A stretch of DNA of 35,347 bases. Source: a virus. Below, piece after piece: positions 722 through 15,681 of this stretch; the stretch's first letter is position 1; every line of letters starts with the position of its first letter. Both the position numbers and the translations under genes were made by a program. The stretch lies in the IMG/VR virus record IMGVR_UViG_3300044729_000291, positions 1 through 35,347 of that record. The stretch is one strand, 5' to 3'. Under the pieces are notes generated by a model, which searched no databases, was not told the DNA's origin, and saw only the letters and a program-made list of their open reading frames with translations.

Positions 722-750
722 TTGACATGGTAGCATCATTTCATTATATT
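722..750 (+). promoter_or_regulatory. Sigma70-like early rightward promoter
   Basis: TTGACA at 722-727, a 17-nt spacer, then TATATT at 745-750. It sits about 58 nt upstream of the first + strand gene (AAGGAG 794-799, ATG 808). Confidence 0.6.
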
Positions 751-1134: not shown

Positions 1135-1502
1135 GCACCGAACCCTGCCTCTGCGGTGCCACAGACTGCCCTCGCTGTTACCCGGGTTACCGCCCGGAGC
1201 CGAGCGACCGGCACATAAATCTGGCGCTGGATACAGTGATTGATGTCTTGCTGGATTTTGGCCAGTGGCCTCCAAACGGTCGAGCTCAATTCGACCTTTA
1301 CGATTTCCTGCTCGAAAACCGAGATCCTTCCTTTGCTTGGGAAATGTATCTTTCCAGTTTTTCATCGAACACCGAGGCATTCGCCGACCGCATCGAGCGT
1401 GAGAGCAAGAAAGTTAGGTGCATGATTGAAGATCATTTGATCGACTCCGACATCGTTTACGACTTGGCGTGCGAATACGCCGCCGAGGAAAACGAAGAAT
1501 GA
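1131..1502 (+). CDS. Hypothetical strongly acidic early protein with an N-terminal Cys4 motif (123 aa)
   Basis: ATGA overlap with the upstream gene. CLCGATDCPRCY near the N-terminus. By my count 26 D/E versus 10 K/R. The C-terminus is ...EYAAEENEE. Confidence 0.75.
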   Translation: MSTEPCLCGATDCPRCYPGYRPEPSDRHINLALDTVIDVLLDFGQWPPNGRAQFDLYDFLLENRDPSFAWEMYLSSFSSNTEAFADRIERESKKVRCMIEDHLIDSDIVYDLACEYAAEENEE

Positions 1503-1582
1503 GTATCTCTGAAGTCTGCTTCTGGGTCTGCGTTGTTGGCGGAGTGATTACTTTTGCAATCTTAATTTTTACTGAGGGGTAA
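1499..1582 (+). CDS. Candidate 27-aa hydrophobic micropeptide
   Basis: Hand translation gives MSISEVCFWVCVVGGVITFAILIFTEG. Its ATG overlaps the upstream TGA (ATGA at 1499-1502) and its TAA overlaps the downstream ATG (TAATG at 1580-1584). It exactly fills an otherwise unassigned 80-nt gap and is below the ORF-track length cutoff. Confidence 0.4.
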   Translation: MSISEVCFWVCVVGGVITFAILIFTEG

Positions 1583-2262
1583 TGATGGCTATCAAGCTGA
1601 AAAATACCGGCAGCCTTGCCGAAAATGGCGTGAAGTTATTGGTATACGGTGCCGCTGGCGCCGGTAAGACCACGCTCATCAAGACGCTGCCGAACGTGAT
1701 TGTGCTCAGTGCCGAGGGTGGTTTGTTGTCCATCCAGGATGCCAACCTACCATATTTGGAAATCGGCAGCATGGAGGATTTGCGCGAAGCCTTTACTTGG
1801 TGCAAAGAAAGCAAAGAGGCCGCGGGCTTTGAATCTGTGGTGCTGGACAGCATTTCCGAAGTGGCCGAAGTCGTGCTGCATGAGGAATTGAAGAAACAAA
1901 AGGATGGCCGGGCGGCATATGGTGAGATGAACAGCACCATGCAGGACTTGATCCGCGCCTTTCGTGACCTGCCCAACAAGCACGTTTTTATGACCGCCAA
2001 GCTGGAGAAAAGCGCCGACGAAATGGGTCGGATTCTTTATAACCCAGGAATGCCCGGCAAGAGCCTGACTCAAGGACTGCCCTACTTTTTCGATGAAGTG
2101 CTGGCGCTGCGGGTCGAGAAGGATGCCGAGGGCACTACCCAAAGGGCTTTGATGTGCGACTCGGATGGGCTGTGGCTGGCAAAAGATCGCTCCGGCAAGC
2201 TGGAAGCATGGGAAGCACCTGATCTGGGTGCCATTATTGCCAAGATCGGTGGCAAAAAATGA
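1582..2262 (+). CDS. Sak4-like RecA-fold ATPase (AAA_24 family), ssDNA annealing/recombination
   Basis: Walker A LLVYGAAGAGKTTL. Length about 225 aa. Classic phage context next to a DUF669 protein. The start could be either ATG 1582 or ATG 1585. Confidence 0.85.
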   Translation: MMAIKLKNTGSLAENGVKLLVYGAAGAGKTTLIKTLPNVIVLSAEGGLLSIQDANLPYLEIGSMEDLREAFTWCKESKEAAGFESVVLDSISEVAEVVLHEELKKQKDGRAAYGEMNSTMQDLIRAFRDLPNKHVFMTAKLEKSADEMGRILYNPGMPGKSLTQGLPYFFDEVLALRVEKDAEGTTQRALMCDSDGLWLAKDRSGKLEAWEAPDLGAIIAKIGGKK

Positions 2263-2645
2263 GCGACCTTAAAACCCTGAGTGCCGAGTGGCTGGTCTGC
2301 AAATACGCAGAGGAAAAGGCCACGACTGATCGCCGCAAGATCGAAGATCAGATGGTCAAGCTGCTGGCGATTCCGCCAGACTTTGAGTCTACCGAAACCG
2401 CAGAGCCGGAAGGCTTTGTGGTCAAAGTCTCGGGCCGGATTGACCGAAAAGTTGATTCCGAAAAGCTGCAAGAGCTGGCCGCTGAAGCCGGATTGTCTGA
2501 GCATCTTGCCAAGCTGTTCAGGTGGAAACCGGAAATCAACATGGCGATCTGGAAGGCCGCAGATGAAGCAATTACCCGTCCGTTAGCTGCAGCAATCACG
2601 GCCAAGCCTGGCCGCCCGTCTTTTAAAATCACTTTCAAGGATTAA
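2259..2645 (+). CDS. Hypothetical protein (128 aa) between Sak4 and DUF669
   Basis: ATGA overlap with the Sak4-like gene. Charged and probably helical. No family recognised. Confidence 0.75.
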   Translation: MSDLKTLSAEWLVCKYAEEKATTDRRKIEDQMVKLLAIPPDFESTETAEPEGFVVKVSGRIDRKVDSEKLQELAAEAGLSEHLAKLFRWKPEINMAIWKAADEAITRPLAAAITAKPGRPSFKITFKD

Positions 2646-2648
2646 ATC

Positions 2649-3146
2649 ATGGCTTTCTTAACTGAAGAATTCAACGTCAACGAACTGCCGCAAGGAAAAG
2701 GCAACTTTGAGCCGCTGCCTGCTGGCTGGTATTCCGCCACCATCTCGCAGTCCGAACTCAAGGACACCAAGGCCGGGAACGGTCAATACATCAAACTGCG
2801 TTACGACATCACTGGCCCGACTCACCAGGGCCGGGTGGTGTTTGGGAACTTGAACATCAAGAACCCCAATCCCAAAGCCGAGGAAATCGGACGGGCGCAG
2901 TTGGGCGACATCATGCGTGCCATCGGGCTGGCCAAGGTCACTGACACTGATCAACTGATCGGCGGCGAGCTTGTGATCAAGCTGGAAATCAAACAGGACG
3001 AGACTTACGGGGCTGGTAACGAAGTCAAAGGCTTTAAGTCTGCCTCCGGCAGTCCGGCACCTGCCGCCGCGGTGATCCCTGCCACGGCCAAGTCACCTGC
3101 TGCGGCAGCACCCACCAAGGCCGCACCGCCTTGGGCTAAGAAGTAA
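2649..3146 (+). CDS. DUF669-family phage ssDNA-binding-like protein
   Basis: The N-terminus ...FEPLPAGWYSATI...ELKDTKAGNGQYIKLRYDI..G...GR.VF..LNI.N and the Ala/Pro-rich disordered tail fit DUF669, the usual partner of Sak4. Confidence 0.8.
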   Translation: MAFLTEEFNVNELPQGKGNFEPLPAGWYSATISQSELKDTKAGNGQYIKLRYDITGPTHQGRVVFGNLNIKNPNPKAEEIGRAQLGDIMRAIGLAKVTDTDQLIGGELVIKLEIKQDETYGAGNEVKGFKSASGSPAPAAAVIPATAKSPAAAAPTKAAPPWAKK

Positions 3147-3156
3147 GACAAAAAAA

Positions 3157-3184
3157 GCCCAGGCCAGCGTCAACTGGTCTGGGC
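3157..3184 (+). terminator. GC-rich hairpin between the recombination module and the helicase-MTase gene
   Basis: gcccaggccag (3157-3167), loop cgtcaa, ctggtctgggc (3174-3184): 11 bp with one G-T pair. An A7 run lies upstream and only a weak T content downstream, so it is not a canonical + strand terminator. Confidence 0.35.
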
Positions 3185-3211
3185 ATTAACTTACAAGGTA
3201 GAGGTTAGATT

Positions 3212-5407
3212 ATGGATTATGAGTTATTTGTAAGCAACAAACGTCGAGCAGAGCTTGCGACGGGTCATAAACCAGGCAATCTTAACGAGCATCTTTTTGA
3301 CTTTCAGCACGCCATTGTTTCATGGGCTGTGCGCCGTGGCCGCGCTGCTATTTTTGCAGACACGGGCCTTGGAAAGACTCTAATGCAACTTGCATGGGCT
3401 GATGAGGTTTCTACACATACCGGGGGCATGGTGCTTATCCTTGCGCCTTTGGCAGTATCTGAGCAGACGATTGAGCAGGGCCAGACTTTTGGCATTGAGG
3501 TCAAGCGCGTGGCTCATGGTGGCACGCCAGACAGTCCTGGCATTTGGATTACAAATTATGAGCGCATAGAGCCAGTTCAGTTTGACGAGTTGCATGGATT
3601 GGTGCTGGATGAGTCAAGCATTTTGAAGGCCCACGACGGCAAAACAAGAACAAAAATTATTGCATCTGCTCAAGGCGTGCCGTATCGACTAAGTTGCACA
3701 GCAACGCCAAGCCCAAATGACTTTGATGAACTTGGCAATCAGTGTGAGTTTTTAGGAGTAATGACTCGCACTGAAATGTTAGCCACTTACTTTAAAAACG
3801 ATACCGGAGATACTGGGTCTTGGATTCTAAAAGGATGGGGCCAGTCTAGGTTTTGGGAGTGGATGGGGTCTTGGTCTGTGGTGCTACGCAATCCGGTTGA
3901 TATTGGATTTGATGGTTCTAATTACATTTTGCCTGAGCCTGAATATATTGAGCACGTTATCCAATCTGATCAAGGTGGAGACCTGTTTGCGAAGCCAGCG
4001 CAAACAATGCTAGAGCGCCGCCAAGCGCAGCGTGGAAGCATTGAGCAACGGTGCCGCGCATTGGCTGATGTGGTTAACGCTAACCCGTCAGAGCCTTGGT
4101 TGATATGGTGCCACTTAAACGACGAAGCTGAAATGCTTGAGTCGTTGATTGATGGCTCCGTCAATGTGCAGGGCAGTGATAAGCCAGAAACAAAATCCGC
4201 TAGGATGCTTGACTTCACGCATGGCAAATTGCGAGTTCTTATTTCCAAGCCGAAGATATGCGGTTTTGGCATGAATTGGCAACACTGCGCTCGCATGGCA
4301 TTTGTTGGCCTTGATGATTCATTTGAGAAGTTTTACCAAGCAGTGCGCCGGTGTTATCGCTTTGGACAAAAGCGCAAAGTCGTTGTGCATATGTTTACCG
4401 CTGAGAATGAAGGCCAAATTCTAGCCAATTTGAAACGAAAAGAAGTCCAACACCACGAAATGAGTGCAAACATGATTGACCACATGAAAGACATCATGAA
4501 TCAAGAGCTTGCCGGAATTAATAATATAGTCGAGGAATACCAAGAGGCAACGCACGAAGGTGACGGGTATACGGTTTACCTTGGAGACTGCGTGAAATGG
4601 ACGCGCCGCATGGAAGATAACAGCATCGACTACTCTGTGTTTAGTCCGCCGTTTGCTGATTTGTTTGTTTACTCAAACAGCGATCACGACATGGGCAACT
4701 GCAAGAATGATGCTGAGTTTGTAGCTCAACTGCGCTATTTGATTTCTGAATTGTTCAGGGTCATTAAGCCTGGTCGAAATGTTTCATTCCATTGCATGAA
4801 TTTGCCAACAACAAAGATGCGCCAAGGCTTTATTGGCTTGCGTGATTTTCGGGGAGATTTGATTAGAGCATTTCAAGATGTCGGGTTTATTTACCATTCT
4901 GAGGTTTGCATATGGAAAGACCCAGTAGTTGCTATGCAGCGCACAAAAGCACTTGGATTGCTGCATAAAACTATTCGTGAAAACAGCACCATGAGCAGAA
5001 TGGGGCTTCCTGACTACGTTGTAACGATGAGAAAGCCGGGCGACTGCGAGGAACGCGTAAAGCACAACGATAGTGATGATCTTCCGGTTGAATTATGGCA
5101 AAAGTATGCAAGTCCTATATGGGATGACATCAACCAAAGCAGAACACTTAACAAGCTGCCAGCTAGAGACGAAAACGACACAAAGCATATGTGTCCGCTT
5201 CAGCTTGATGTGATCGAGCGTTGCATTCATCTTTGGACAAATAAAGGGGATTTAATTTTTAGCCCGTTTACCGGAATTGGCTCTGAAGGTTACTCAGCCA
5301 TAAAGATGGGCAGACGCTTTGTTGGCACTGAGTTAAAGCCTCAATACTTTGAGCTTGCATGCCAAAATATTGATGATGCAAAGCAAGATCAAAAAGGATT
5401 ATTTTAA
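3212..5407 (+). CDS. SNF2/SF2 helicase fused to a beta-class N6A/N4C DNA methyltransferase (731 aa)
   Basis: Helicase motifs: ADTGLGKT (aa 49-56), LVLDESS (aa 130-135), TATP (aa 163-166), QAVRRCYRFGQ (aa 376-386). MTase motifs in the order IV then I: SPPF (aa 478-481), HMCPLQLDVIERCI, then FSPFTGIGS (aa 683-691). That order is typical of the N6_N4_Mtase family. Confidence 0.85.
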   Translation: MDYELFVSNKRRAELATGHKPGNLNEHLFDFQHAIVSWAVRRGRAAIFADTGLGKTLMQLAWADEVSTHTGGMVLILAPLAVSEQTIEQGQTFGIEVKRVAHGGTPDSPGIWITNYERIEPVQFDELHGLVLDESSILKAHDGKTRTKIIASAQGVPYRLSCTATPSPNDFDELGNQCEFLGVMTRTEMLATYFKNDTGDTGSWILKGWGQSRFWEWMGSWSVVLRNPVDIGFDGSNYILPEPEYIEHVIQSDQGGDLFAKPAQTMLERRQAQRGSIEQRCRALADVVNANPSEPWLIWCHLNDEAEMLESLIDGSVNVQGSDKPETKSARMLDFTHGKLRVLISKPKICGFGMNWQHCARMAFVGLDDSFEKFYQAVRRCYRFGQKRKVVVHMFTAENEGQILANLKRKEVQHHEMSANMIDHMKDIMNQELAGINNIVEEYQEATHEGDGYTVYLGDCVKWTRRMEDNSIDYSVFSPPFADLFVYSNSDHDMGNCKNDAEFVAQLRYLISELFRVIKPGRNVSFHCMNLPTTKMRQGFIGLRDFRGDLIRAFQDVGFIYHSEVCIWKDPVVAMQRTKALGLLHKTIRENSTMSRMGLPDYVVTMRKPGDCEERVKHNDSDDLPVELWQKYASPIWDDINQSRTLNKLPARDENDTKHMCPLQLDVIERCIHLWTNKGDLIFSPFTGIGSEGYSAIKMGRRFVGTELKPQYFELACQNIDDAKQDQKGLF

Positions 5408-5673
5408 TGGGAACTCGAAACGACTCCATTTTAGACCGTAACGAATATCTGAGCCGTTCGCGTGAATTTGCGTTGCGTGGTCAAGAGCTGCCGCAAACAA
5501 AGCTATCAGACCTTGACGTAATCGCCATCAGAAGTGCTGCGCGACAACGGGAGAGTTTACGCCAGCACATCCGCAGCAATCTTAGTAACGACGCATTGGC
5601 TAGTAATTTTGGCGTGCATGTCAGGACTGTTGAGAAAATCCTTCAATACAAAACATGGAGTCACCTTGTATGA
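5407..5673 (+). CDS. Small putative HTH DNA-binding protein (88 aa)
   Basis: TAATG overlap with the upstream gene. The C-terminal LASNFGVHVRTVEKILQYKTW looks like a helix-turn-helix. Confidence 0.65.
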   Translation: MGTRNDSILDRNEYLSRSREFALRGQELPQTKLSDLDVIAIRSAARQRESLRQHIRSNLSNDALASNFGVHVRTVEKILQYKTWSHLV

Positions 5674-6695
5674 CTGCGATACCTGAGAACACAAACAACA
5701 TCGAAAGCCTGATCGACAAGCACCACGAAGGCCAGTCCGAAGTGCCGCGTTCCCATCTTGGCGCCAGCACGCTGGGCCATGTTTGCGACCGCTGGCTGTG
5801 GCTGTCTTTCCGATGGGCGGTGCAGCCGAGCTTCCCGGGCCGCATCCTCCGCCTGTTTCGCCGTGGCCGTGAGGAGGAAGTTAATATTATCAACGACCTT
5901 CGCGCTATCGGGATGGATGTGAGAAAGGTGTCAAGCCAGCATCGGGTGGACTTTGGGAGCCATGTGTCTGGGAGCCTCGATGCCATCATCGACTCTGGCG
6001 TGCCGGAAGCGCCAAGGTCAAAGCATATTGCTGAGTTCAAGACTGCCTCAAAGAAAGCATTCGATTCCTTGGTCAAGGATGGCGTGGAGAAATCAAAGCC
6101 AGAGCACTATGTCCAGATGCAGGTCTACATGGCCGGAACCAAGATAGACCGCGCCCTGTATCTGACCGTCTGCAAGGATGATGACCGCATCCATACCGAG
6201 CGAGTGAAATACGATAAGACCGTAGCAACCAAGGCCATCGAGCGCGGCAAGCGCATCGCCATGGCTGACAGGATGCCTGAACCGATCAGTTCAGATCCGA
6301 GCTGGTATCAGTGCAAATTCTGCGATGCCCACGACTTCTGCCATCAGTCCAAGACCACAAAGCACGTGAACTGCCGCACCTGCGCTCATGCCACAGCATT
6401 GCAGGATTCTACCTGGCATTGCGCCAGATGGGATGCTGTAATCCCATATGATACCCAGAAAGAAGGCTGCGAATCTCACGTTCTGCATCCTGACCTAGTG
6501 CCGTGGAAGCGCAAGGACGGGCCGGATGAGTGGACAGCCATTTATGAAATCAACGGGGTCGATCTGGCCAACGGAGAGGGTGACGCGAATGTTTACACCA
6601 GTAAAGAGTTACTCGCCAACCCTGCTGCCTGCGCTGGTGGAGATCCGTTCGTGGCTGAGTTGCGGCAGGAATTTGATGGAAGGATTGTGGGGTGA
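5670..6695 (+). CDS. PD-(D/E)XK Cas4-like exonuclease with Fe-S Cys motif and a Cys-rich C-terminal extension
   Basis: Start placed at the ATGA overlap (5670). Residues numbered in the track ORF that starts at 5655: D109 (GSLDAII), E127-x-K129 (AEFKT), N-terminal Cys (GHVCDRW), and C-x2-C-x5-C (CKFCDAHDFC), as in Cas4/AddB. Further Cys/His residues occur at aa 240-275. Confidence 0.8.
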   Translation: MTAIPENTNNIESLIDKHHEGQSEVPRSHLGASTLGHVCDRWLWLSFRWAVQPSFPGRILRLFRRGREEEVNIINDLRAIGMDVRKVSSQHRVDFGSHVSGSLDAIIDSGVPEAPRSKHIAEFKTASKKAFDSLVKDGVEKSKPEHYVQMQVYMAGTKIDRALYLTVCKDDDRIHTERVKYDKTVATKAIERGKRIAMADRMPEPISSDPSWYQCKFCDAHDFCHQSKTTKHVNCRTCAHATALQDSTWHCARWDAVIPYDTQKEGCESHVLHPDLVPWKRKDGPDEWTAIYEINGVDLANGEGDANVYTSKELLANPAACAGGDPFVAELRQEFDGRIVG

Positions 6696-7270
6696 GAGTT
6701 TTAATTGCCTGTGAGTTTTCCGGCATTGTGCGCCGAGCCTTTGCAGCGCGTGGGCATGAGGCCTGGTCATGCGATCTGCTGCCGTCAGATGACCGCACTG
6801 ATTTTCACATCGTAGGCGATGCCAGAGACATTTTGAATGACGGCTGGGATTTGCTGATGGTGGCGCATCCACCCTGCACTAGGTTATGCAATTCAGGGGT
6901 GCGCTGGCTGGCAGAGCGCAATCTGTGGCCTGAACTTAAGGATGCTGCCGACTTGTTTTCTGCGTTTTGGAATGCGCCCATTGAGCGCATCTGCGTAGAG
7001 AATCCGGTCATGCACAAGCACGCAAAGGCACTCATCCATAACTATCTGGCGCCAGCGCAATCAGTGCAGCCGTGGCAGTTCGGGCATGGGGAAACGAAGC
7101 GAACCTGTTTATGGCTGCGGAACCTGCCGAAACTAACTCCGACCAATATTGTCGATGGCCGCGAGGCTCGTGTGCATCGGATGCCTCCAGGACCAAACCG
7201 CTGGCGAGAGCGTTCGCGGTTTTTTCCCGGCATTGCTGACGCAATGGCAGATCAATGGGGTGGGCTTTAA
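6692..7270 (+). CDS. C5-cytosine-methyltransferase-like protein, 192 aa, essentially lacking a target-recognition domain
   Basis: GTG start in a GTGA overlap, with GGAAGGA upstream. Motif-like strings appear in canonical order: ACEFSGIV (motif I-like), AHPPCTRLCNSG (PC motif IV), VENPV (ENV motif VI), ETKRTCLWLRNLP (VIII-like), RSRFFPGIADAMADQW (IX/X-like). Confidence 0.65.
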   Translation: MRVLIACEFSGIVRRAFAARGHEAWSCDLLPSDDRTDFHIVGDARDILNDGWDLLMVAHPPCTRLCNSGVRWLAERNLWPELKDAADLFSAFWNAPIERICVENPVMHKHAKALIHNYLAPAQSVQPWQFGHGETKRTCLWLRNLPKLTPTNIVDGREARVHRMPPGPNRWRERSRFFPGIADAMADQWGGL

Positions 7271-8871
7271 TGTTAAGGGAATACCAACAACGCACCATTG
7301 ACCAGCTCTACGCATGGTTTGAGGCTGGCAATGCTGGCAATCCCTGCTTGGTGCTGCCGACTGGTTCTGGCAAAAGTCACATTGTGGCCGCGCTGTGCAA
7401 GGATGCCATCCAGAACTGGCCCGAAACGCGGGTGCTGATGATTACCCATGTCAAAGAACTGATTGAGCAGAACGCCGAGAAGATGCGCCAGCACTGGCCG
7501 GGTGCGCCGATGGGGATTTATTCCGCAGGCATTGGCCGGCGTGATCTGGGCGAGCCTATCACGTTCGCCGGCATCCAGTCGGTGCGGTCTAGATCAAAGC
7601 AGCTTGGTCATGTTGATCTGGTGATCATTGACGAGTGCCACCTAGTCAACCACAAGGACGAGGGGGTGTATCGGAAACTGCTGGGTGAGCTTATGGCTAT
7701 CAATCCAAGCATGAGGATAGTAGGTCTTAGCGCAACGCCTTACAGATTAGGACATGGACTCATTACTGAAAAGCCTGCCCTGTTTGACGATCTGATCGAG
7801 CCGGTCAGCATTGAGGAATTGGTGTTTAAGGGCTACCTTGCCACGCTGCGGAGCAAGATCACCAAGGCCAAACTGGACACGACAGGGGTGCATAAGCGCG
7901 GCGGGGAGTTCATTGAGTCCGAGCTACAGGCTGCGGTCGACACCGATGACAAGAATCAGGCCGTGGTGCAGGAGGTGGTTACATTGGCGGGTGAGCGCAA
8001 GGCATGGCTGGTGTTTTGCACTGGCGTTAAGCACGCTCATCACGTTGCCGAAGTCCTGCGCCAGCATGGGGTGACTGCTGAGTGTGTGACTGGTGAGACG
8101 CCGAAAAAAGAGCGCAAGAAGCTGCTGGATGACTTTCGGGCCGGAAGGCTGCGTGCGCTGACCAATGCCAACGTATTAACGACCGGATTTGATTACCCTG
8201 ATATTGACTTGGTGGTGATGCTGCGCCCGACCATGAGCGCCAGCCTTTACATCCAGATGGCTGGCCGGGGCATGAGGGTTAAGAGCCACACCGATCATTG
8301 TTTAGTTCTCGACTTTGCCGGTGTGGTTGAGGCGCATGGGCCGATCACCAACGTCCAGCCGCCGAAGAAAGGCAGCGATGGCAACGGCGAGGCACCAGTC
8401 AAGGTCTGCGACGAGTGTGGGGAGCTTGTCCATATCTCGGCGGCAGTCTGCCCGGCCTGCGGTGCAATGTTCCCGGAGCCGATCAAGAAGGCACTGGTGC
8501 TGCACCACGATGACATCATGGGGCTTGAAGGAAAAGACCTTGAGATTACAACCTGGAACTGGCGCATCCACACCAGCAAGGCCAGCGGGAAGCTGATGCT
8601 GTCCTGCACCTACTACGGTGATTTGTCCGACAAGCCCATCACTGAATATCTGCCGGTGCTCCATGACGGCTATGCAGGCCAAAGGGCGATGCAGCAATTG
8701 TTTACGATGGCCGCATCGTCTGGGGCTGATCTTGCCAAATCATCGACTTTGCAAGGTGACGAGGCACTGGATTATATGTCGGTGCAGATGAGCAATTCAG
8801 CACCGCCCAAGCTGATTGAATACCGCAAGGATGGGAAGTTCTTTCGAGTCATTAAGAGGAATTGGACATGA
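7270..8871 (+). CDS. SF2 DEAD/DEAH-type DNA helicase with a C-terminal zinc ribbon (533 aa)
   Basis: TAATG overlap start (MLREYQQRTI...). LPTGSGKS (motif I), IIDECH (motif II), SATP (motif III), QMAGRGMR (motif VI), then CDECGELVHISAAVCPACG. Confidence 0.85.
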   Translation: MLREYQQRTIDQLYAWFEAGNAGNPCLVLPTGSGKSHIVAALCKDAIQNWPETRVLMITHVKELIEQNAEKMRQHWPGAPMGIYSAGIGRRDLGEPITFAGIQSVRSRSKQLGHVDLVIIDECHLVNHKDEGVYRKLLGELMAINPSMRIVGLSATPYRLGHGLITEKPALFDDLIEPVSIEELVFKGYLATLRSKITKAKLDTTGVHKRGGEFIESELQAAVDTDDKNQAVVQEVVTLAGERKAWLVFCTGVKHAHHVAEVLRQHGVTAECVTGETPKKERKKLLDDFRAGRLRALTNANVLTTGFDYPDIDLVVMLRPTMSASLYIQMAGRGMRVKSHTDHCLVLDFAGVVEAHGPITNVQPPKKGSDGNGEAPVKVCDECGELVHISAAVCPACGAMFPEPIKKALVLHHDDIMGLEGKDLEITTWNWRIHTSKASGKLMLSCTYYGDLSDKPITEYLPVLHDGYAGQRAMQQLFTMAASSGADLAKSSTLQGDEALDYMSVQMSNSAPPKLIEYRKDGKFFRVIKRNWT

Positions 8872-9065
8872 AAACAAGACCGCCAGCGCCGCAGTTCGTC
8901 ACCGATTACCGAGAATGGGTCAAGGCTGGCCCTCCGAAATGCTGCCATACCTGCGAAAGTTACGGCACCGATGGACTGTGCACCGAGTTCTTCATGGAGC
9001 CGCCAGCGGAGTTTGCCGCCACCGTCAATGCTTGTCCGAAGTGGGAATGTGAAGTTCCTTTTTGA
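8868..9065 (+). CDS. Hypothetical Cys-rich protein (65 aa)
   Basis: ATGA overlap with the helicase stop. KCCHTCESYGTDGLC...CPKWEC. Confidence 0.6.
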   Translation: MKTRPPAPQFVTDYREWVKAGPPKCCHTCESYGTDGLCTEFFMEPPAEFAATVNACPKWECEVPF

Positions 9066-12437: not shown

Positions 12438-12791
12438 TTAAATACCCTGGCCCGGCACGATGTAAACAGTAGCTGCTGCGCTGGACAGGCCGCTAAAAAA
12501 AGTATTCTGATTGAAGCGCAGGATTTCAACCGCACCAGGAACCAGCACAATGGCTGCTGATGGCGTTCCGGCGACAGGAGCGACAGCGTTGGTCGTGGCA
12601 TCTGTTGCGTTTGCGCCAAAGCCCAAGAACACGGTTGTCGTGCCTGCGTTGATCAGGCGATACTGGCCTGTGCTTTGCTGCTCAAACTTGTCATAAACAG
12701 GTGCTTGAACGCCAGTCGGCGCAGAAGCGGCTGCTGCCACTACGATGGTCTTGCCAAGCGGGGTGAATGCAATTTGACTGTTTGTTCCCAT
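12438..12791 (-). CDS. Hypothetical Ala/Thr/Gly-rich beta protein (117 aa)
   Basis: Internal ATG (12789-12791) preceded by AAGGAG. The longer track form (to 12833) overlaps the upstream gene. Confidence 0.65.
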   Translation of the reverse strand: MGTNSQIAFTPLGKTIVVAAAASAPTGVQAPVYDKFEQQSTGQYRLINAGTTTVFLGFGANATDATTNAVAPVAGTPSAAIVLVPGAVEILRFNQNTFFSGLSSAAATVYIVPGQGI

Positions 12792-12792
12792 T

Positions 12793-13041
12793 TCAGACTC
12801 CTTTTTTATCGGTAGCTGCTTTGTATTCAGCAATCACTTTGGCGGTGTGTGTGGCAGCGCAGATGGCCTTAACTCGTGCATCCTCGCTGCTGTAGTCATC
12901 ACCAGGGGCAACAACGTGGCGGTGGAATGTGCTACTGATCTGCTTGCCATCTTCCATGATGGCGGTCTTGGTGCGGACTTGGATTGAGCCGTTTTCGACA
13001 ACTTCAATCAAATCAACAGAGATAACTTTTTCAAGAGCCAT
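12793..13041 (-). CDS. Hypothetical protein (82 aa)
   Basis: ORF in operon orientation. No family recognised. Confidence 0.6.
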   Translation of the reverse strand: MALEKVISVDLIEVVENGSIQVRTKTAIMEDGKQISSTFHRHVVAPGDDYSSEDARVKAICAATHTAKVIAEYKAATDKKGV

Positions 13042-13112
13042 GATATTTCCTTGTTTCCAGCCTGACTATCTAGCCAAGCATTAAGGTTTCCAGTTGTCCG
13101 AACTGGTACGGT

Positions 13113-13379
13113 TTAACAGTCAACAGCGCCAGCGAATTCCGGCAAAGTTTTTAAGTGCTCGTAGGCTTGCGCAATTGGGTTTGCACCAGAAAGATCATAT
13201 TTACAATCAAACGATGTTTGCTTTACTGCTGCCTTTGCTTTGTCAAAATAAAAATTGACAACAACACTGCAATTTTCTTTTTGAAAAATTGTCACTGTAT
13301 CGACGCGAATATAACAATTTTCAACTTCAATTCCGCTTATAAGATGAATTCTTTTTTTGACAGCCATTTTAATTTCCAA
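13113..13379 (-). CDS. Hypothetical protein (84-88 aa)
   Basis: ORF in operon orientation in very AT-rich sequence. The start is ATG 13379 or ATG 13367. Confidence 0.55.
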   Translation of the reverse strand: MEIKMAVKKRIHLISGIEVENCYIRVDTVTIFQKENCSVVVNFYFDKAKAAVKQTSFDCKYDLSGANPIAQAYEHLKTLPEFAGAVDC

Positions 13380-13400
13380 TCAAAACCAAGTTGTTAAAAG

Positions 13401-14816
13401 TTATTCTGCAGAAGCAGACCATGAAAATTGAGTGTTTACGCCGCCGCCAAAGGTAACGGTAATATTTGTTGCGTTAAAAGAAACGGTAAGGTCAGTTGCG
13501 CCAGACCCGCTAAGGGGTACAACAGTTACGAATTTTGGTGTTGTAGAAAGACCGTGAGATATTGTGCCGCCCGACGCAATTGCGCTTGATACGCCGCCGT
13601 TGCTTGTTACATACCCAATATTGTCTTTTACAATTCTGCTAGTGCCTGATGTTGAACTATCAATAAAGGTTGCAGACACATTTAATCTAAAATCATTGTC
13701 CGCAACAATAATGTTGCTATTGCTTCCGGCTCCAATATCAAAGCCAGCATATTGAGAGTTAGGACTTGTGCCACCTAAACCTGAAATTTGACCGCTACGA
13801 CAGTTTGTTACCCTGTAGTTATTTAAATTACCATTTGCGGAAAGTCCTGAATACAAGCCAGAGGTTGTCTGAGAATTGCCAGTAAATACGCAACTTTCAA
13901 TTATGACGTCCTCATAGCTGCCTGATACTAAGTGCATACCACGCAAACCATTCAGGTATGCGTAACAGCCATAAAAATGTACGGAATTTGCAACGGCAGG
14001 TGCAACATAAATTCCGCTAAAGGTATTGATTGGTGCCCCAGAATTGTTAATTCTTGCCCAATTAATTGCGCCTGCGCCGACTAATGCTATTCCGTAAGTC
14101 CCACCTTCAAAATGACATTCATTAACATTTAAGTGGTCAACGGCATCTGGCCCTGCTGGGTCTACCCTCAACCCTTCCCCAGATTGAAATGCGTCAATGT
14201 TTTTAATGTTGCAGATTGCCGCTTTCCGTACCAAGATTGCGTAGGCCGGTTGCGCTCCAATCGGGCCTTGTATTGTGCCGTTTTCAAGGTAGAAATCACC
14301 AACATTAATTAAATCAACAACAATACCGCCAGCAGCAGTATTTGTTAGCTGAAAATTTTGTATAACGCCAGCACCGCCATTTAAAGATATTGCTTTAAAC
14401 GCGCCGTTAATTTGAATATTGTCAATGTTAAAAGTATTTACTGCATCTAATTTTAATGCAGTTCCGCCAGTCATTACTGTGGTATGCGTAATCCGCAAAT
14501 TTTCAATGTTGTTTCTAAATTGATTTGTTCCGTTGCTTACGGTAATGATTGTGCCGGTTGCCGACCCAGCCCAATTAATGGACGCGCCCGTGTCAAAAAT
14601 CAAAGACACATCATTAGCAAGAACAGTTATTCCAGTTGTTAATAGATAAACACCATCGGGAAAATAAACTGAACCACCATTGTTTGCTTCTGCTGCGTCA
14701 ATTGCCGCCTGAATTGAAGCATTATTATTTGTTGATCCATCACCAACAGCGCCAAAGTCTAAAACGTTAAACATCTCGCCGTTTATCATCGAAAAAGAAA
14801 CTTTAGTTAGAGACAT
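13401..14816 (-). CDS. Tailspike / depolymerase, right-handed beta-helix (Pectate_lyase_3-like)
   Basis: Internal ATG 14816 with AAGGA upstream. FNVLDFGAVGDGSTNNNASIQAAIDAAEANNGGSVYFPDGVYLL is the signature N-terminus of pectate-lyase-superfamily phage depolymerases. Repetitive Gly/Asn/Ile-rich coils follow. Confidence 0.85.
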   Translation of the reverse strand: MSLTKVSFSMINGEMFNVLDFGAVGDGSTNNNASIQAAIDAAEANNGGSVYFPDGVYLLTTGITVLANDVSLIFDTGASINWAGSATGTIITVSNGTNQFRNNIENLRITHTTVMTGGTALKLDAVNTFNIDNIQINGAFKAISLNGGAGVIQNFQLTNTAAGGIVVDLINVGDFYLENGTIQGPIGAQPAYAILVRKAAICNIKNIDAFQSGEGLRVDPAGPDAVDHLNVNECHFEGGTYGIALVGAGAINWARINNSGAPINTFSGIYVAPAVANSVHFYGCYAYLNGLRGMHLVSGSYEDVIIESCVFTGNSQTTSGLYSGLSANGNLNNYRVTNCRSGQISGLGGTSPNSQYAGFDIGAGSNSNIIVADNDFRLNVSATFIDSSTSGTSRIVKDNIGYVTSNGGVSSAIASGGTISHGLSTTPKFVTVVPLSGSGATDLTVSFNATNITVTFGGGVNTQFSWSASAE

Positions 14817-14826
14817 AATTTTCCTT

Positions 14827-15681
14827 TTACGCTGAAATATACACGAAGCTTCCAACCAAATAACCACCTGCAACTTCAAGCGCAGTTGCTGTTACTGTCC
14901 CTGAATTTTGCTTCCAAATGGTAACGGTTGTTGCGCTTGAATCTGTTGTAAAACCAATAGGTGTTATTGCACTTATCCATGCAAAAGCAGATGAAGTCGC
15001 TGTCCCATCAGTAGTAAACGGCAAACCAGAAATGGTGCAGCTATTTGACGTTGTGCCTGCCGCATCAGCACCAATGTAAAAAGACGCCGTTACCAATCTT
15101 CCAACTTTGACGTATTTTCCGGATTGTCCTCTTGGGTATGTAAAAGTTGCGCCAGTTGAAACTAATGCTGGCGTCCAAGTACCTTCTTCATAATCGGCCA
15201 GCAACTCGCTTGTGCCTGTGCCCGGTGTGGCAGAAAAGTCGATGCCTTTTGTATCTGCCATAACAAGGTTGCCAGTGGACAGCGTAACGTTACCCACCAA
15301 GGTCGGGGCCGTTGCCAGCACGTTGTTTCCAGTGCCTGTGTTGGTGACGCTGACAATCTCTTTGCTTGCATTCAGCGCCAAGGCTGTAGATGCAGTTAAG
15401 TTTGACAAGGTGCTTGTGCCTGAGACAGAAAGGTTTACGCCGTTCAGATCAGCACCGCCCTCGACTCGCTGCCAGACCGAGCCGTTGAAGGTTGCAAGGT
15501 CGCCCACGCCCCAATTGCTGATGCCGTCGAGGGCCGTAGTGCCTGCCACGCTGACAACGTAGTAGTCGCCCTTGGTGCCGACACCAGATGCCAATGCTGG
15601 GCTGTTGGTGCTGGCATTCCACGTGCCTTTGTAGTTCAATGCACCGATGGCATTGGTGATGGACGAAACTGTTTTTAGCAT
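14827..15681 (-). CDS. Tail fiber protein
   Basis: The N-terminal motif YKGTWNASTNSPALASGVGTKGDYYVVSVAGTTALDGISNWGVGDLATFNGSVWQRV is widespread in phage tail fibers. The rest is Thr/Ser/Gly-rich. Confidence 0.75.
   Translation of the reverse strand: MLKTVSSITNAIGALNYKGTWNASTNSPALASGVGTKGDYYVVSVAGTTALDGISNWGVGDLATFNGSVWQRVEGGADLNGVNLSVSGTSTLSNLTASTALALNASKEIVSVTNTGTGNNVLATAPTLVGNVTLSTGNLVMADTKGIDFSATPGTGTSELLADYEEGTWTPALVSTGATFTYPRGQSGKYVKVGRLVTASFYIGADAAGTTSNSCTISGLPFTTDGTATSSAFAWISAITPIGFTTDSSATTVTIWKQNSGTVTATALEVAGGYLVGSFVYISA

Follow-up and report, generated by a model that had tools for sequence, protein, structure and literature searches.

A SWI2/SNF2-type ATPase fused to a beta-class DNA methyltransferase is encoded on a mobile phage cassette

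We report that a 35,347-nt stretch of viral DNA (IMG/VR record IMGVR_UViG_3300044729_000291, positions 1 to 35,347; hereafter the window) carries a mobile accessory cassette whose principal open reading frame (ORF), 3212-5407, encodes a single polypeptide in which a SWI2/SNF2-type ATPase at the N-terminus is joined through a long linker helix to a beta-class N6_N4 methyltransferase at the C-terminus. We lean, with modest confidence, towards the view that this protein is an accessory, motor-coupled orphan methyltransferase that would methylate the replicating DNA of the phage and protect it from host restriction. The window is a podovirus-like phage genome of ~35 kb. The fusion gene is preceded by a GAGG-type ribosome-binding site and comprises the following features, all numbered by window position:

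3212..5407, + strand: helicase-methyltransferase fusion gene, ATG start, 731 aa
3266..4411, + strand: SWI2/SNF2-type ATPase module, aa ~19-400
3365-3379, + strand: motif I, GLGKT, aa 52-56
3608-3619, + strand: motif II, DESS, aa 133-136
3698-3709, + strand: motif III, TATP, aa 163-166
4337-4369, + strand: motif VI, QAVRRCYRFGQ, aa 376-386
4418..4510, + strand: linker helix joining motor to methyltransferase, aa 403-433
4547..5386, + strand: beta-class amino-methyltransferase domain, aa 446-725
4643-4654, + strand: motif IV, SPPF, aa 478-481
5258-5284, + strand: motif I of the methyltransferase, FSPFTGIGS, aa 683-691

An earlier reading made from the letters alone (the sequence-only reading) had described complete SF2/SNF2 motifs in the N-terminal half and a permuted N6_N4_Mtase, SPPF followed by FSPFTGIGS, in the C-terminal half, and profile and structure searches agreed with it on both domains and on their order in one polypeptide. 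In the N-terminal half, motifs I, II, III and VI were all found, the last fitting the SNF2-type pattern Q-A-x-x-R-x-x-R-x-G-Q. Helicase_C exceeded its Pfam cut-off, and SNF2-rel_dom (PF00176) reached 24.8 bits against a cut-off of 24.9, 0.1 bit short, with precomputed PF00176 hits present on many close homologues. An AlphaFold2 (AF2) model built from 43 diverse homologues (pLDDT 86, pTM 0.77) contained two RecA-like lobes with helices 171-231 and 266-289 between them, the long linker helix and the methyltransferase domain. When the helicase half was searched against the PDB with Foldseek, the top matches were all SNF2 ATPases (Mot1, CSB, BRG1, Chd1, ISWI, INO80 and RapA; E 3e-18 to 1e-14). Motifs and modelled fold thus place the motor half in the SWI2/SNF2 family of SF2 ATPases. 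The methyltransferase half matched Pfam N6_N4_Mtase (PF01555) over aa 473-716 with 61.3 bits against a cut-off of 26.7; SPPF lies N-terminal to FSPFTGIGS, which is the circularly permuted beta-class order, and the closest solved structure was the beta-class enzyme TTHA0409 (Foldseek, TM 0.81), with which a PDB sequence search concurred. Across 43 sequences sharing 35-90% identity, G52, G54, K55, D133, E134, P166, Q376, R380 and R383 of the motor and S478, P480, F481 and F686 of the methyltransferase were invariant. Neither Pfam nor the AF2 model revealed a nuclease domain in the polypeptide.

Split versions of the protein occur in nature, breaking just past the linker helix, and the sequence-only reading had worried that a frameshift or an assembly artefact around position 4500 had joined two genes here. 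We rate the probability of such an artefact as close to nil. More than 100 independent metagenome contigs carried the same uninterrupted ORF at 84-95% identity, which settles the point; the more than 100 close homologues were single ORFs of 729-751 aa. The fusion was also intact in two contigs discussed below, L104 and L003, and the junction falls inside the confidently modelled linker helix (AF2). Together, these observations effectively refute the artefact.

The fusion had also been presented as an unusual architecture, a view that did not survive comparison: the gene belongs to a very large phage family spanning bacterial phyla, already annotated in hundreds of phage records, to which the window copy adds no new architecture. 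An exhaustive search against cluster representatives at 50% identity returned 12,490 matching representatives at E <= 1e-3 and 1,252 at E <= 1e-30. Among the best 150 representatives, 100 were fused, every one in helicase-then-methyltransferase order, 46 were helicase only and 4 methyltransferase only. When one genome per species was scanned, almost all bacterial phyla had members in prophage-like regions, and one archaeal metagenome-assembled genome had a member too; on plasmids the family was rare, with 8 of 72,556 records reaching at least 80% coverage of the gene. Among 43 loci with flanking sequence, 17 encoded the fusion and 23 encoded separate helicase and methyltransferase genes overlapping by 4-20 nt.

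Fused members in GenBank include Synechococcus phage S-CBS3 gp40 (annotated "DNA methylase"), Arthrobacter phages (Sakai gp72 and Faja gp78, "DNA helicase/methylase"), Flavobacterium FCV/FCOV phages, Pseudomonas phage phi297 (gp10, a further annotated homologue) and a Methanosarcinales virus. The annotated phage homologues share the two domains of the window copy at 30-53% identity over the full length, in the same order and likewise in early replication or recombination regions; some, unlike the window copy, are split in two genes. Mycobacteriophages carry split helicase and methylase pairs (e.g., BobaPhett 70/71), and in Flavobacterium phage snusmum6-1 an HNH gene separates the two. In Alteromonas phage XX1924 (L011 5037-8412), the order is permuted and the linkage kept: a methyltransferase gene, an unrelated ORF and then the helicase gene. 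The window copy falls in an abundant clade distinct from these, made up of sequences from environmental Proteobacteria phages, its closest phage records being at most 53% identical and its metagenome relatives 84-95%. Megablast of window positions 1500-9000 against GenBank phages returned zero matches, and the phage therefore has no close cultured relative. Inteins (Hint plus LAGLIDADG homing endonuclease) were present in representatives P0123, P0125, P0198 and P0233, inserted close to motif I of the helicase lobe, within the methyltransferase domain or in both; they account for family members of 1,060-1,430 aa. Representative P0158 (1304 aa) has two HMG boxes after the helicase-methyltransferase, which points to a copy of the phage-type fusion in a eukaryote or giant virus.

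The cassette occupies a defined site between a gene for a protein resembling single-stranded DNA-binding protein (SSB) and a Cas4-type exonuclease gene. The features of this site are:

2649..3146, + strand: DUF669 SSB-like gene, left flank of the cassette insertion site
3157..3184, + strand: hairpin assigned to the phage backbone, an A7 tract, then an 11-bp GC-rich stem with one G-U pair
5407..5673, + strand: 88-aa low-GC ORF with a weak helix-turn-helix-like C-terminus
5671..6695, + strand: Cas4-domain (PD-(D/E)XK) exonuclease gene with its probable start, right flank of the insertion site

DUF669 is a distant SSB and a partner of Sak4 (PMC5928155). The fusion gene has a GC content of 0.459 and a third-codon-position GC content (GC3) of 0.455, against 0.53-0.57 and 0.57-0.68, respectively, in the flanking early genes. 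The low-GC block extends beyond the fusion gene marked in the sequence-only reading and takes in the 88-aa ORF as well; together the two genes have a GC3 of 0.46 versus 0.63 in the flanking early genes (z = -10.4), bearing out the claim that the gene is lower in GC than the neighbouring recombination genes.

The separate acquisition that had been suspected from this composition could be seen directly. We located 559 relatives in IMG/VR via the SSB gene and mapped 80, of which 76 hold both the SSB and Cas4 genes. In 71 of these 76 close relatives the site is empty, the Cas4 gene coming straight after the SSB gene; the fusion gene is thus not part of the core genome. Only one of them, L104, has the helicase-methyltransferase, at the same site and with 95% identity. 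Two others, L117 (3239-3490) and L167 (3745-3999), have the 88-aa ORF alone at the insertion site. A further relative, L134, holds an unrelated 2.5-kb insert at the same SSB/Cas4 site (1503-3874) with two ORFs of ~381 and ~433 aa, neither of which matches Pfam. The same gene pair also occurs in an unrelated phage contig, L003, at 86% and 60% protein identity, where it is GC-depressed as in the window and where DNA similarity to the window ends at the edges of the two cassette genes. At E <= 1e-3, the Sak4, DUF7173, SSB, Cas4, phrog_757, primase, large terminase (TerL), portal and major capsid protein (MCP) genes were unmatched between L003 and the window, and the RadD-like helicase matched at just 31% identity. 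Since L003 shares the pair while its other compared genes are dissimilar, the fusion gene is mobile. The empty sites and the second, unrelated background demonstrate that the cassette is a mobile accessory unit acquired separately.

These data also bear on whether the protein is primarily a helicase of replication or recombination (a fork remodeller, annealing helicase or branch migrator acting with Sak4, SSB and Cas4) to which the methyltransferase was added to mark new DNA. The gene does lie between the Sak4/SSB genes and the exonuclease gene, its neighbours in other phyla include DNA pol A, primase, SSB, VRR-NUC and DnaB, and its product weakly resembles SNF2-like helicases of Staphylococcus and Streptococcus phages. 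However, the 71 relatives that lack the gene retain all other parts of the module, the RadD-like helicase and the primase-helicase among them, the gene moves as a cassette between unrelated phages, and within the family the helicase is never far from a methyltransferase. We consider a primary helicase role distinctly unlikely. A stronger form, in which the gene would be the essential helicase of the phage, was rejected, as the gene is missing from most of the relatives.

The hairpin at 3157-3184 had been thought to set the fusion gene off from its surroundings. It is a real hairpin (-25 kcal/mol, z = -4.4), although it does not mark a boundary of the cassette, because relatives with an empty site have it too. 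The A-tract and GC-rich hairpin lie directly past the stop codon of the SSB-like gene (window 3147-3211), a position conserved at the 3' end of that gene in cassette-less relatives: L092 (~1585-1640), L093, L094, L096, L140, L109 and others keep it. Their stems differ by compensating changes (GCCCCGG...CCGGGGC; GCCCAGACTAG...CTGGTCTGGGC), and as judged from this conservation, the hairpin belongs to the phage backbone and not to the cassette. On the - strand the same element reads as a stem and then T7, resembling an intrinsic terminator. The G-U pair that the window hairpin has on the + strand would be an A-C mismatch on the - strand.

The 88-aa ORF is translationally coupled to both neighbours: the stop of the fusion gene and the next start overlap as TAATG, and a Cas4-type exonuclease start at 5671 would overlap the stop of the 88-aa ORF as ATGA. 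That ATG at 5671, and not the 5655 of the mechanical ORF call, is probably the true start, as indicated by comparison with relatives (MQIPESEHNIQSLIDKHHEGQ versus MTAIPENTNNIESLIDKHHEGQ). The small ORF accompanies the fusion in L104 and in L003 (12200-12499), two unrelated backgrounds. No homologue of it was present downstream of the fusion in the distant S-CBS3, EBPR podovirus 1, Sakai, BobaPhett, phi297, vir525 and snusmum6-1, and it had no match in the PDB. It may be a regulator, or what is left of the DNA-binding domain of a homing endonuclease.

The early region proved to be a swap site for DNA-modification genes, at which the helicase-methyltransferase is one interchangeable option. Among the relatives L092-L171, the slot between the Cas4 gene and the RadD-like helicase gene ranges from -9 to ~2,000 nt. 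C5 methyltransferases account for 11 of the 34 ORFs it contains and N6_N4 methyltransferases for 2 of the 34; a Mom homologue, PAPS-reductase/DUF3440 proteins, HNH homing endonucleases and an EndoVII were found in the same slot. In a wider census of three ORFs on each side of the 43 loci across phyla, the neighbours were DNA pol A, VapE-type primase, SSB, PD-(D/E)XK nucleases, VRR-NUC, DnaB and further helicases, often with a second methyltransferase of C5 type nearby. No restriction endonuclease family was among the commonest neighbour families.

In the mechanism we favour, the mobile cassette would supply a beta-class orphan DNA amino-methyltransferase permanently coupled to a SWI2/SNF2-type double-stranded DNA motor and expressed from the early rightward operon alongside the recombination and replication genes of the phage. 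We infer that the enzyme methylates the phage's own replicating DNA, and progeny genomes would thereby resist host restriction-modification systems. The motor would make methylation fast and complete; it could move the enzyme along the DNA, or clear or deform the DNA such that the methyltransferase flips its target base. We prefer an accessory, self-protective orphan methyltransferase to a core replication helicase because of the modification-gene swap site and the absence of the gene from most relatives. The proposal that the protein is a broad anti-restriction device is favoured by this context, namely the swapping of modification genes and the lack of a restriction endonuclease family among the commonest neighbours, and stands as a plausible role rather than an established one. 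Orphan phage methyltransferases are described as protecting against restriction (PMC4190342), and the plasmid methyltransferases M.EcoGIX and M.BceJIII are replication-coupled and protect entering DNA (PMC7736820). This plasmid pair shows that coupling of a methyltransferase to the replication machinery can protect mobile DNA. As to the motor, processive methylation by a tethered translocase, as suggested in the sequence-only reading, is one of two plausible roles by analogy, the other being local gating. The target base is weakly predicted to be N4-cytosine (yielding N4-methylcytosine, m4C), on account of the invariant Ser in motif IV (SPPF) and of fold matches to proteins annotated as N4C-specific, among them Pandoravirus proteins in BFVD. 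Motif IV reads SPPY in the N4-cytosine enzyme N4CMT and DPPY in the adenine enzyme CcrM (PMC10406627).

Several points weigh against a self-protective, motor-coupled methyltransferase. A literature search found no functional study of any phage protein with a helicase followed by a beta-class methyltransferase, and no methylation, ATPase or restriction-challenge data for any family member. Many orphan phage methyltransferases work without a motor, which leaves the benefit of one unexplained. A consistent position among genes for replication and recombination would also suit a helicase of DNA metabolism. Finally, distant clades have SIPF as motif IV and a degenerate motif I, and may differ in activity.

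Orphan methyltransferases can also be regulatory, as in the case of phage P1 Dam and pac-site methylation, and the gene does lie in an early operon. An epigenetic regulator of the phage's own life cycle, governing packaging, replication origin use or late gene timing, is nevertheless improbable: most relatives do without the gene, unrelated modification enzymes can take its place in the same region, and unrelated phages exchange it.

If the protective function holds, the family would be among the most common motor-coupled DNA-modifying enzymes in phages, which would account for the ability of many phages to mark their DNA fast enough to outrun restriction. Near-identical natural phage pairs with and without the cassette (the window/L104 type versus the L092/L140 type) provide a clean test system.

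The remaining features of the early region are listed below.

722..750, + strand: sigma-70-like promoter, TTGACA-17-TATATT, 11/12 consensus matches
1582-2262, + strand: Sak4-like annealing protein gene
2259-2645, + strand: DUF7173 gene
6692..7270, + strand: phrog_757, 192-aa DNA-modification-type protein, in the second variable slot

As suggested by its match to the consensus, the promoter probably drives the rightward early operon that holds the cassette; a repressor-like gene (512-805, - strand) faces it. The operon runs on the + strand in the order two small ORFs, Sak4-like, DUF7173, DUF669, helicase-methyltransferase fusion, 88-aa ORF, Cas4-domain exonuclease, phrog_757 and RadD-like, the last being an SF2 helicase with a zinc ribbon. 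The fusion gene is far from the structural genes: the - strand encodes the large terminase, portal, scaffold, major head protein, head-closure and ejection proteins, tailspike and endolysin. A primase-helicase gene is also present, and the window contains no tRNA genes. The phrog_757 product, a family labelled "DNA methyltransferase", contains strings (ACEFSG, HPPC and ENP) that, when its translation is read by eye, resemble C5-methyltransferase motifs I, IV and VI, and a target-recognition domain is apparently missing; it may be a minimal or non-canonical C5 enzyme. It had no match in Pfam, NCBIfam, PADLOC or PDB sequences, and NCBIfam returned nothing over its cut-offs for the fusion or the 88-aa ORF either. 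A second, deeper low-GC block (GC ~0.41, GC3 0.27-0.33) on the - strand at ~12750-15400 spans a tailspike-like gene (13401-14879) and a small adjacent ORF, and is typical of a swapped host-range module.

Among known systems, a coupling of SWI2/SNF2 ATPase and methyltransferase in phages was noted in 2017 (Iyer et al., PMC5512222). The DarB-type "DNA methylase-helicase dyad" of phage P1 is likewise a mobile-element protein that combines a methyltransferase with an ATPase of SWI2/SNF2 type and has been proposed to counter restriction, and processive or DNA-clearing translocation has been proposed for such dyads (PMC5512222). In DarB, however, LPD36 and then a gamma-class methyltransferase (NPPY/F, EcoKI/TaqI-like) are N-terminal and the helicase is C-terminal, whereas the window fusion has the reverse order, a beta-class domain, nothing N-terminal to the helicase and no LPD36. 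DarB is also a giant protein that is packaged in the virion and acts in cis on the injected DNA, in contrast to the 731-aa product of an early-operon gene. The SPPF beta-class methyltransferase, the reversed order, the two-domain build and the lack of LPD36 rule out a DarB-type dyad.

Type III restriction-modification enzymes (EcoP15I Mod2-Res1) likewise bring a beta-class methyltransferase and an SF2 ATPase to the same DNA (PMC7544214; PMC5512222). This resemblance, together with the PD-(D/E)XK (Cas4) gene downstream in the window, would suit an offensive or exclusion device directed against co-infecting elements or host DNA, either as a relative of Type III or Type ISP enzymes that lacks the nuclease or as the partner of a nuclease supplied in trans. 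Against this, the polypeptide has no nuclease domain, the Cas4 gene is backbone and present without the cassette, and no conserved nuclease neighbour emerged in the 43 loci. PADLOC returned only generic MTase_II matches for the whole protein and, for the helicase half, only weak partial matches (at most 25 bits) to ZorD, DrmD, BrxHII and DpdE. We therefore regard an exclusion device as highly improbable; the earlier suggestion of a defence-type enzyme acting on co-infecting elements is likewise unsupported, and membership of a known defence system was rejected on the PADLOC matches. Type III enzymes differ further in that Res is a separate subunit, a ResIII-type helicase with a PD-(D/E)XK nuclease, while the ATPase here is SNF2-type, fused and nuclease-less; Type III was ruled out on these grounds and on the lack of a conserved nuclease partner. 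DISARM (DrmD SNF2 helicase and DrmMI methylase in a DrmA/DrmB/DrmC locus) was set aside, the DrmD matches being partial and at most 20 bits and the neighbours being phage recombination genes. Type ISP enzymes (LlaGI-like) unite a Mrr-family nuclease, an SF2 helicase, a gamma-class methyltransferase and a target-recognition domain in a single polypeptide; the fusion, with no nuclease and a beta-class methyltransferase, is not one of them.

A further comparison is with orphan methyltransferases of mobile elements that act broadly or are coupled to replication. Like the window fusion, M.EcoGII is beta-class, phage-borne (PMC7544214), mobile-element-borne and without a cognate nuclease. M.EcoGIX, also mobile-element-borne without a cognate nuclease, is replication-coupled, acts on single strands and protects entering DNA (PMC7736820). 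Unlike the window fusion, M.EcoGII, M.EcoGIX and M.BceJIII have no fused motor and have a defined specificity; the latter two depend on associating with DNA polymerase I.

DNMT5 of Cryptococcus likewise holds an SNF2 ATPase and a DNA methyltransferase in one polypeptide, and its SNF2 domain, with ATP hydrolysis, is essential for methylation independently of nucleosomes (bioRxiv 10.1101/2020.01.05.895227). On this precedent, the SNF2 module of the window fusion could be an allosteric or DNA-deforming engine whose action is a prerequisite for each methyl transfer, without travel along the DNA, and it could confine the enzyme to one substrate state, e.g., hemimethylated or freshly replicated DNA. 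The tight physical coupling through the rigid linker helix in the AF2 model and the strict retention of the fused or overlapping-gene arrangement are consistent with such gating. Yet DNMT5 is eukaryotic, a C5 and not a beta-class amino-methyltransferase, places its methyltransferase ahead of the SNF2 module, has extra reader domains and serves CpG maintenance, all unlike the window fusion. The free-standing methyltransferase genes of split loci suggest that the methyltransferase folds on its own, and the case for gating is one of analogy. We view ATP gating of this kind as unlikely, if worth keeping in mind. The broader proposition that the SNF2 module is mechanistically required for beta-class amino-methylation, and that the family forms a widespread class of ATP-dependent viral methyltransferases, a counterpart of DNMT5 in prokaryotic viruses that affords broad escape from restriction, we hold tentatively, as a minority possibility. 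Were it true, phage DNA emerging from the replication fork might receive dense or loosely specific methylation from these enzymes, perhaps in the form of m4C, and escape from methylation-sensitive defences other than restriction would become possible. By analogy, DNMT5 is the best characterised model for what the motor of this phage family may do.

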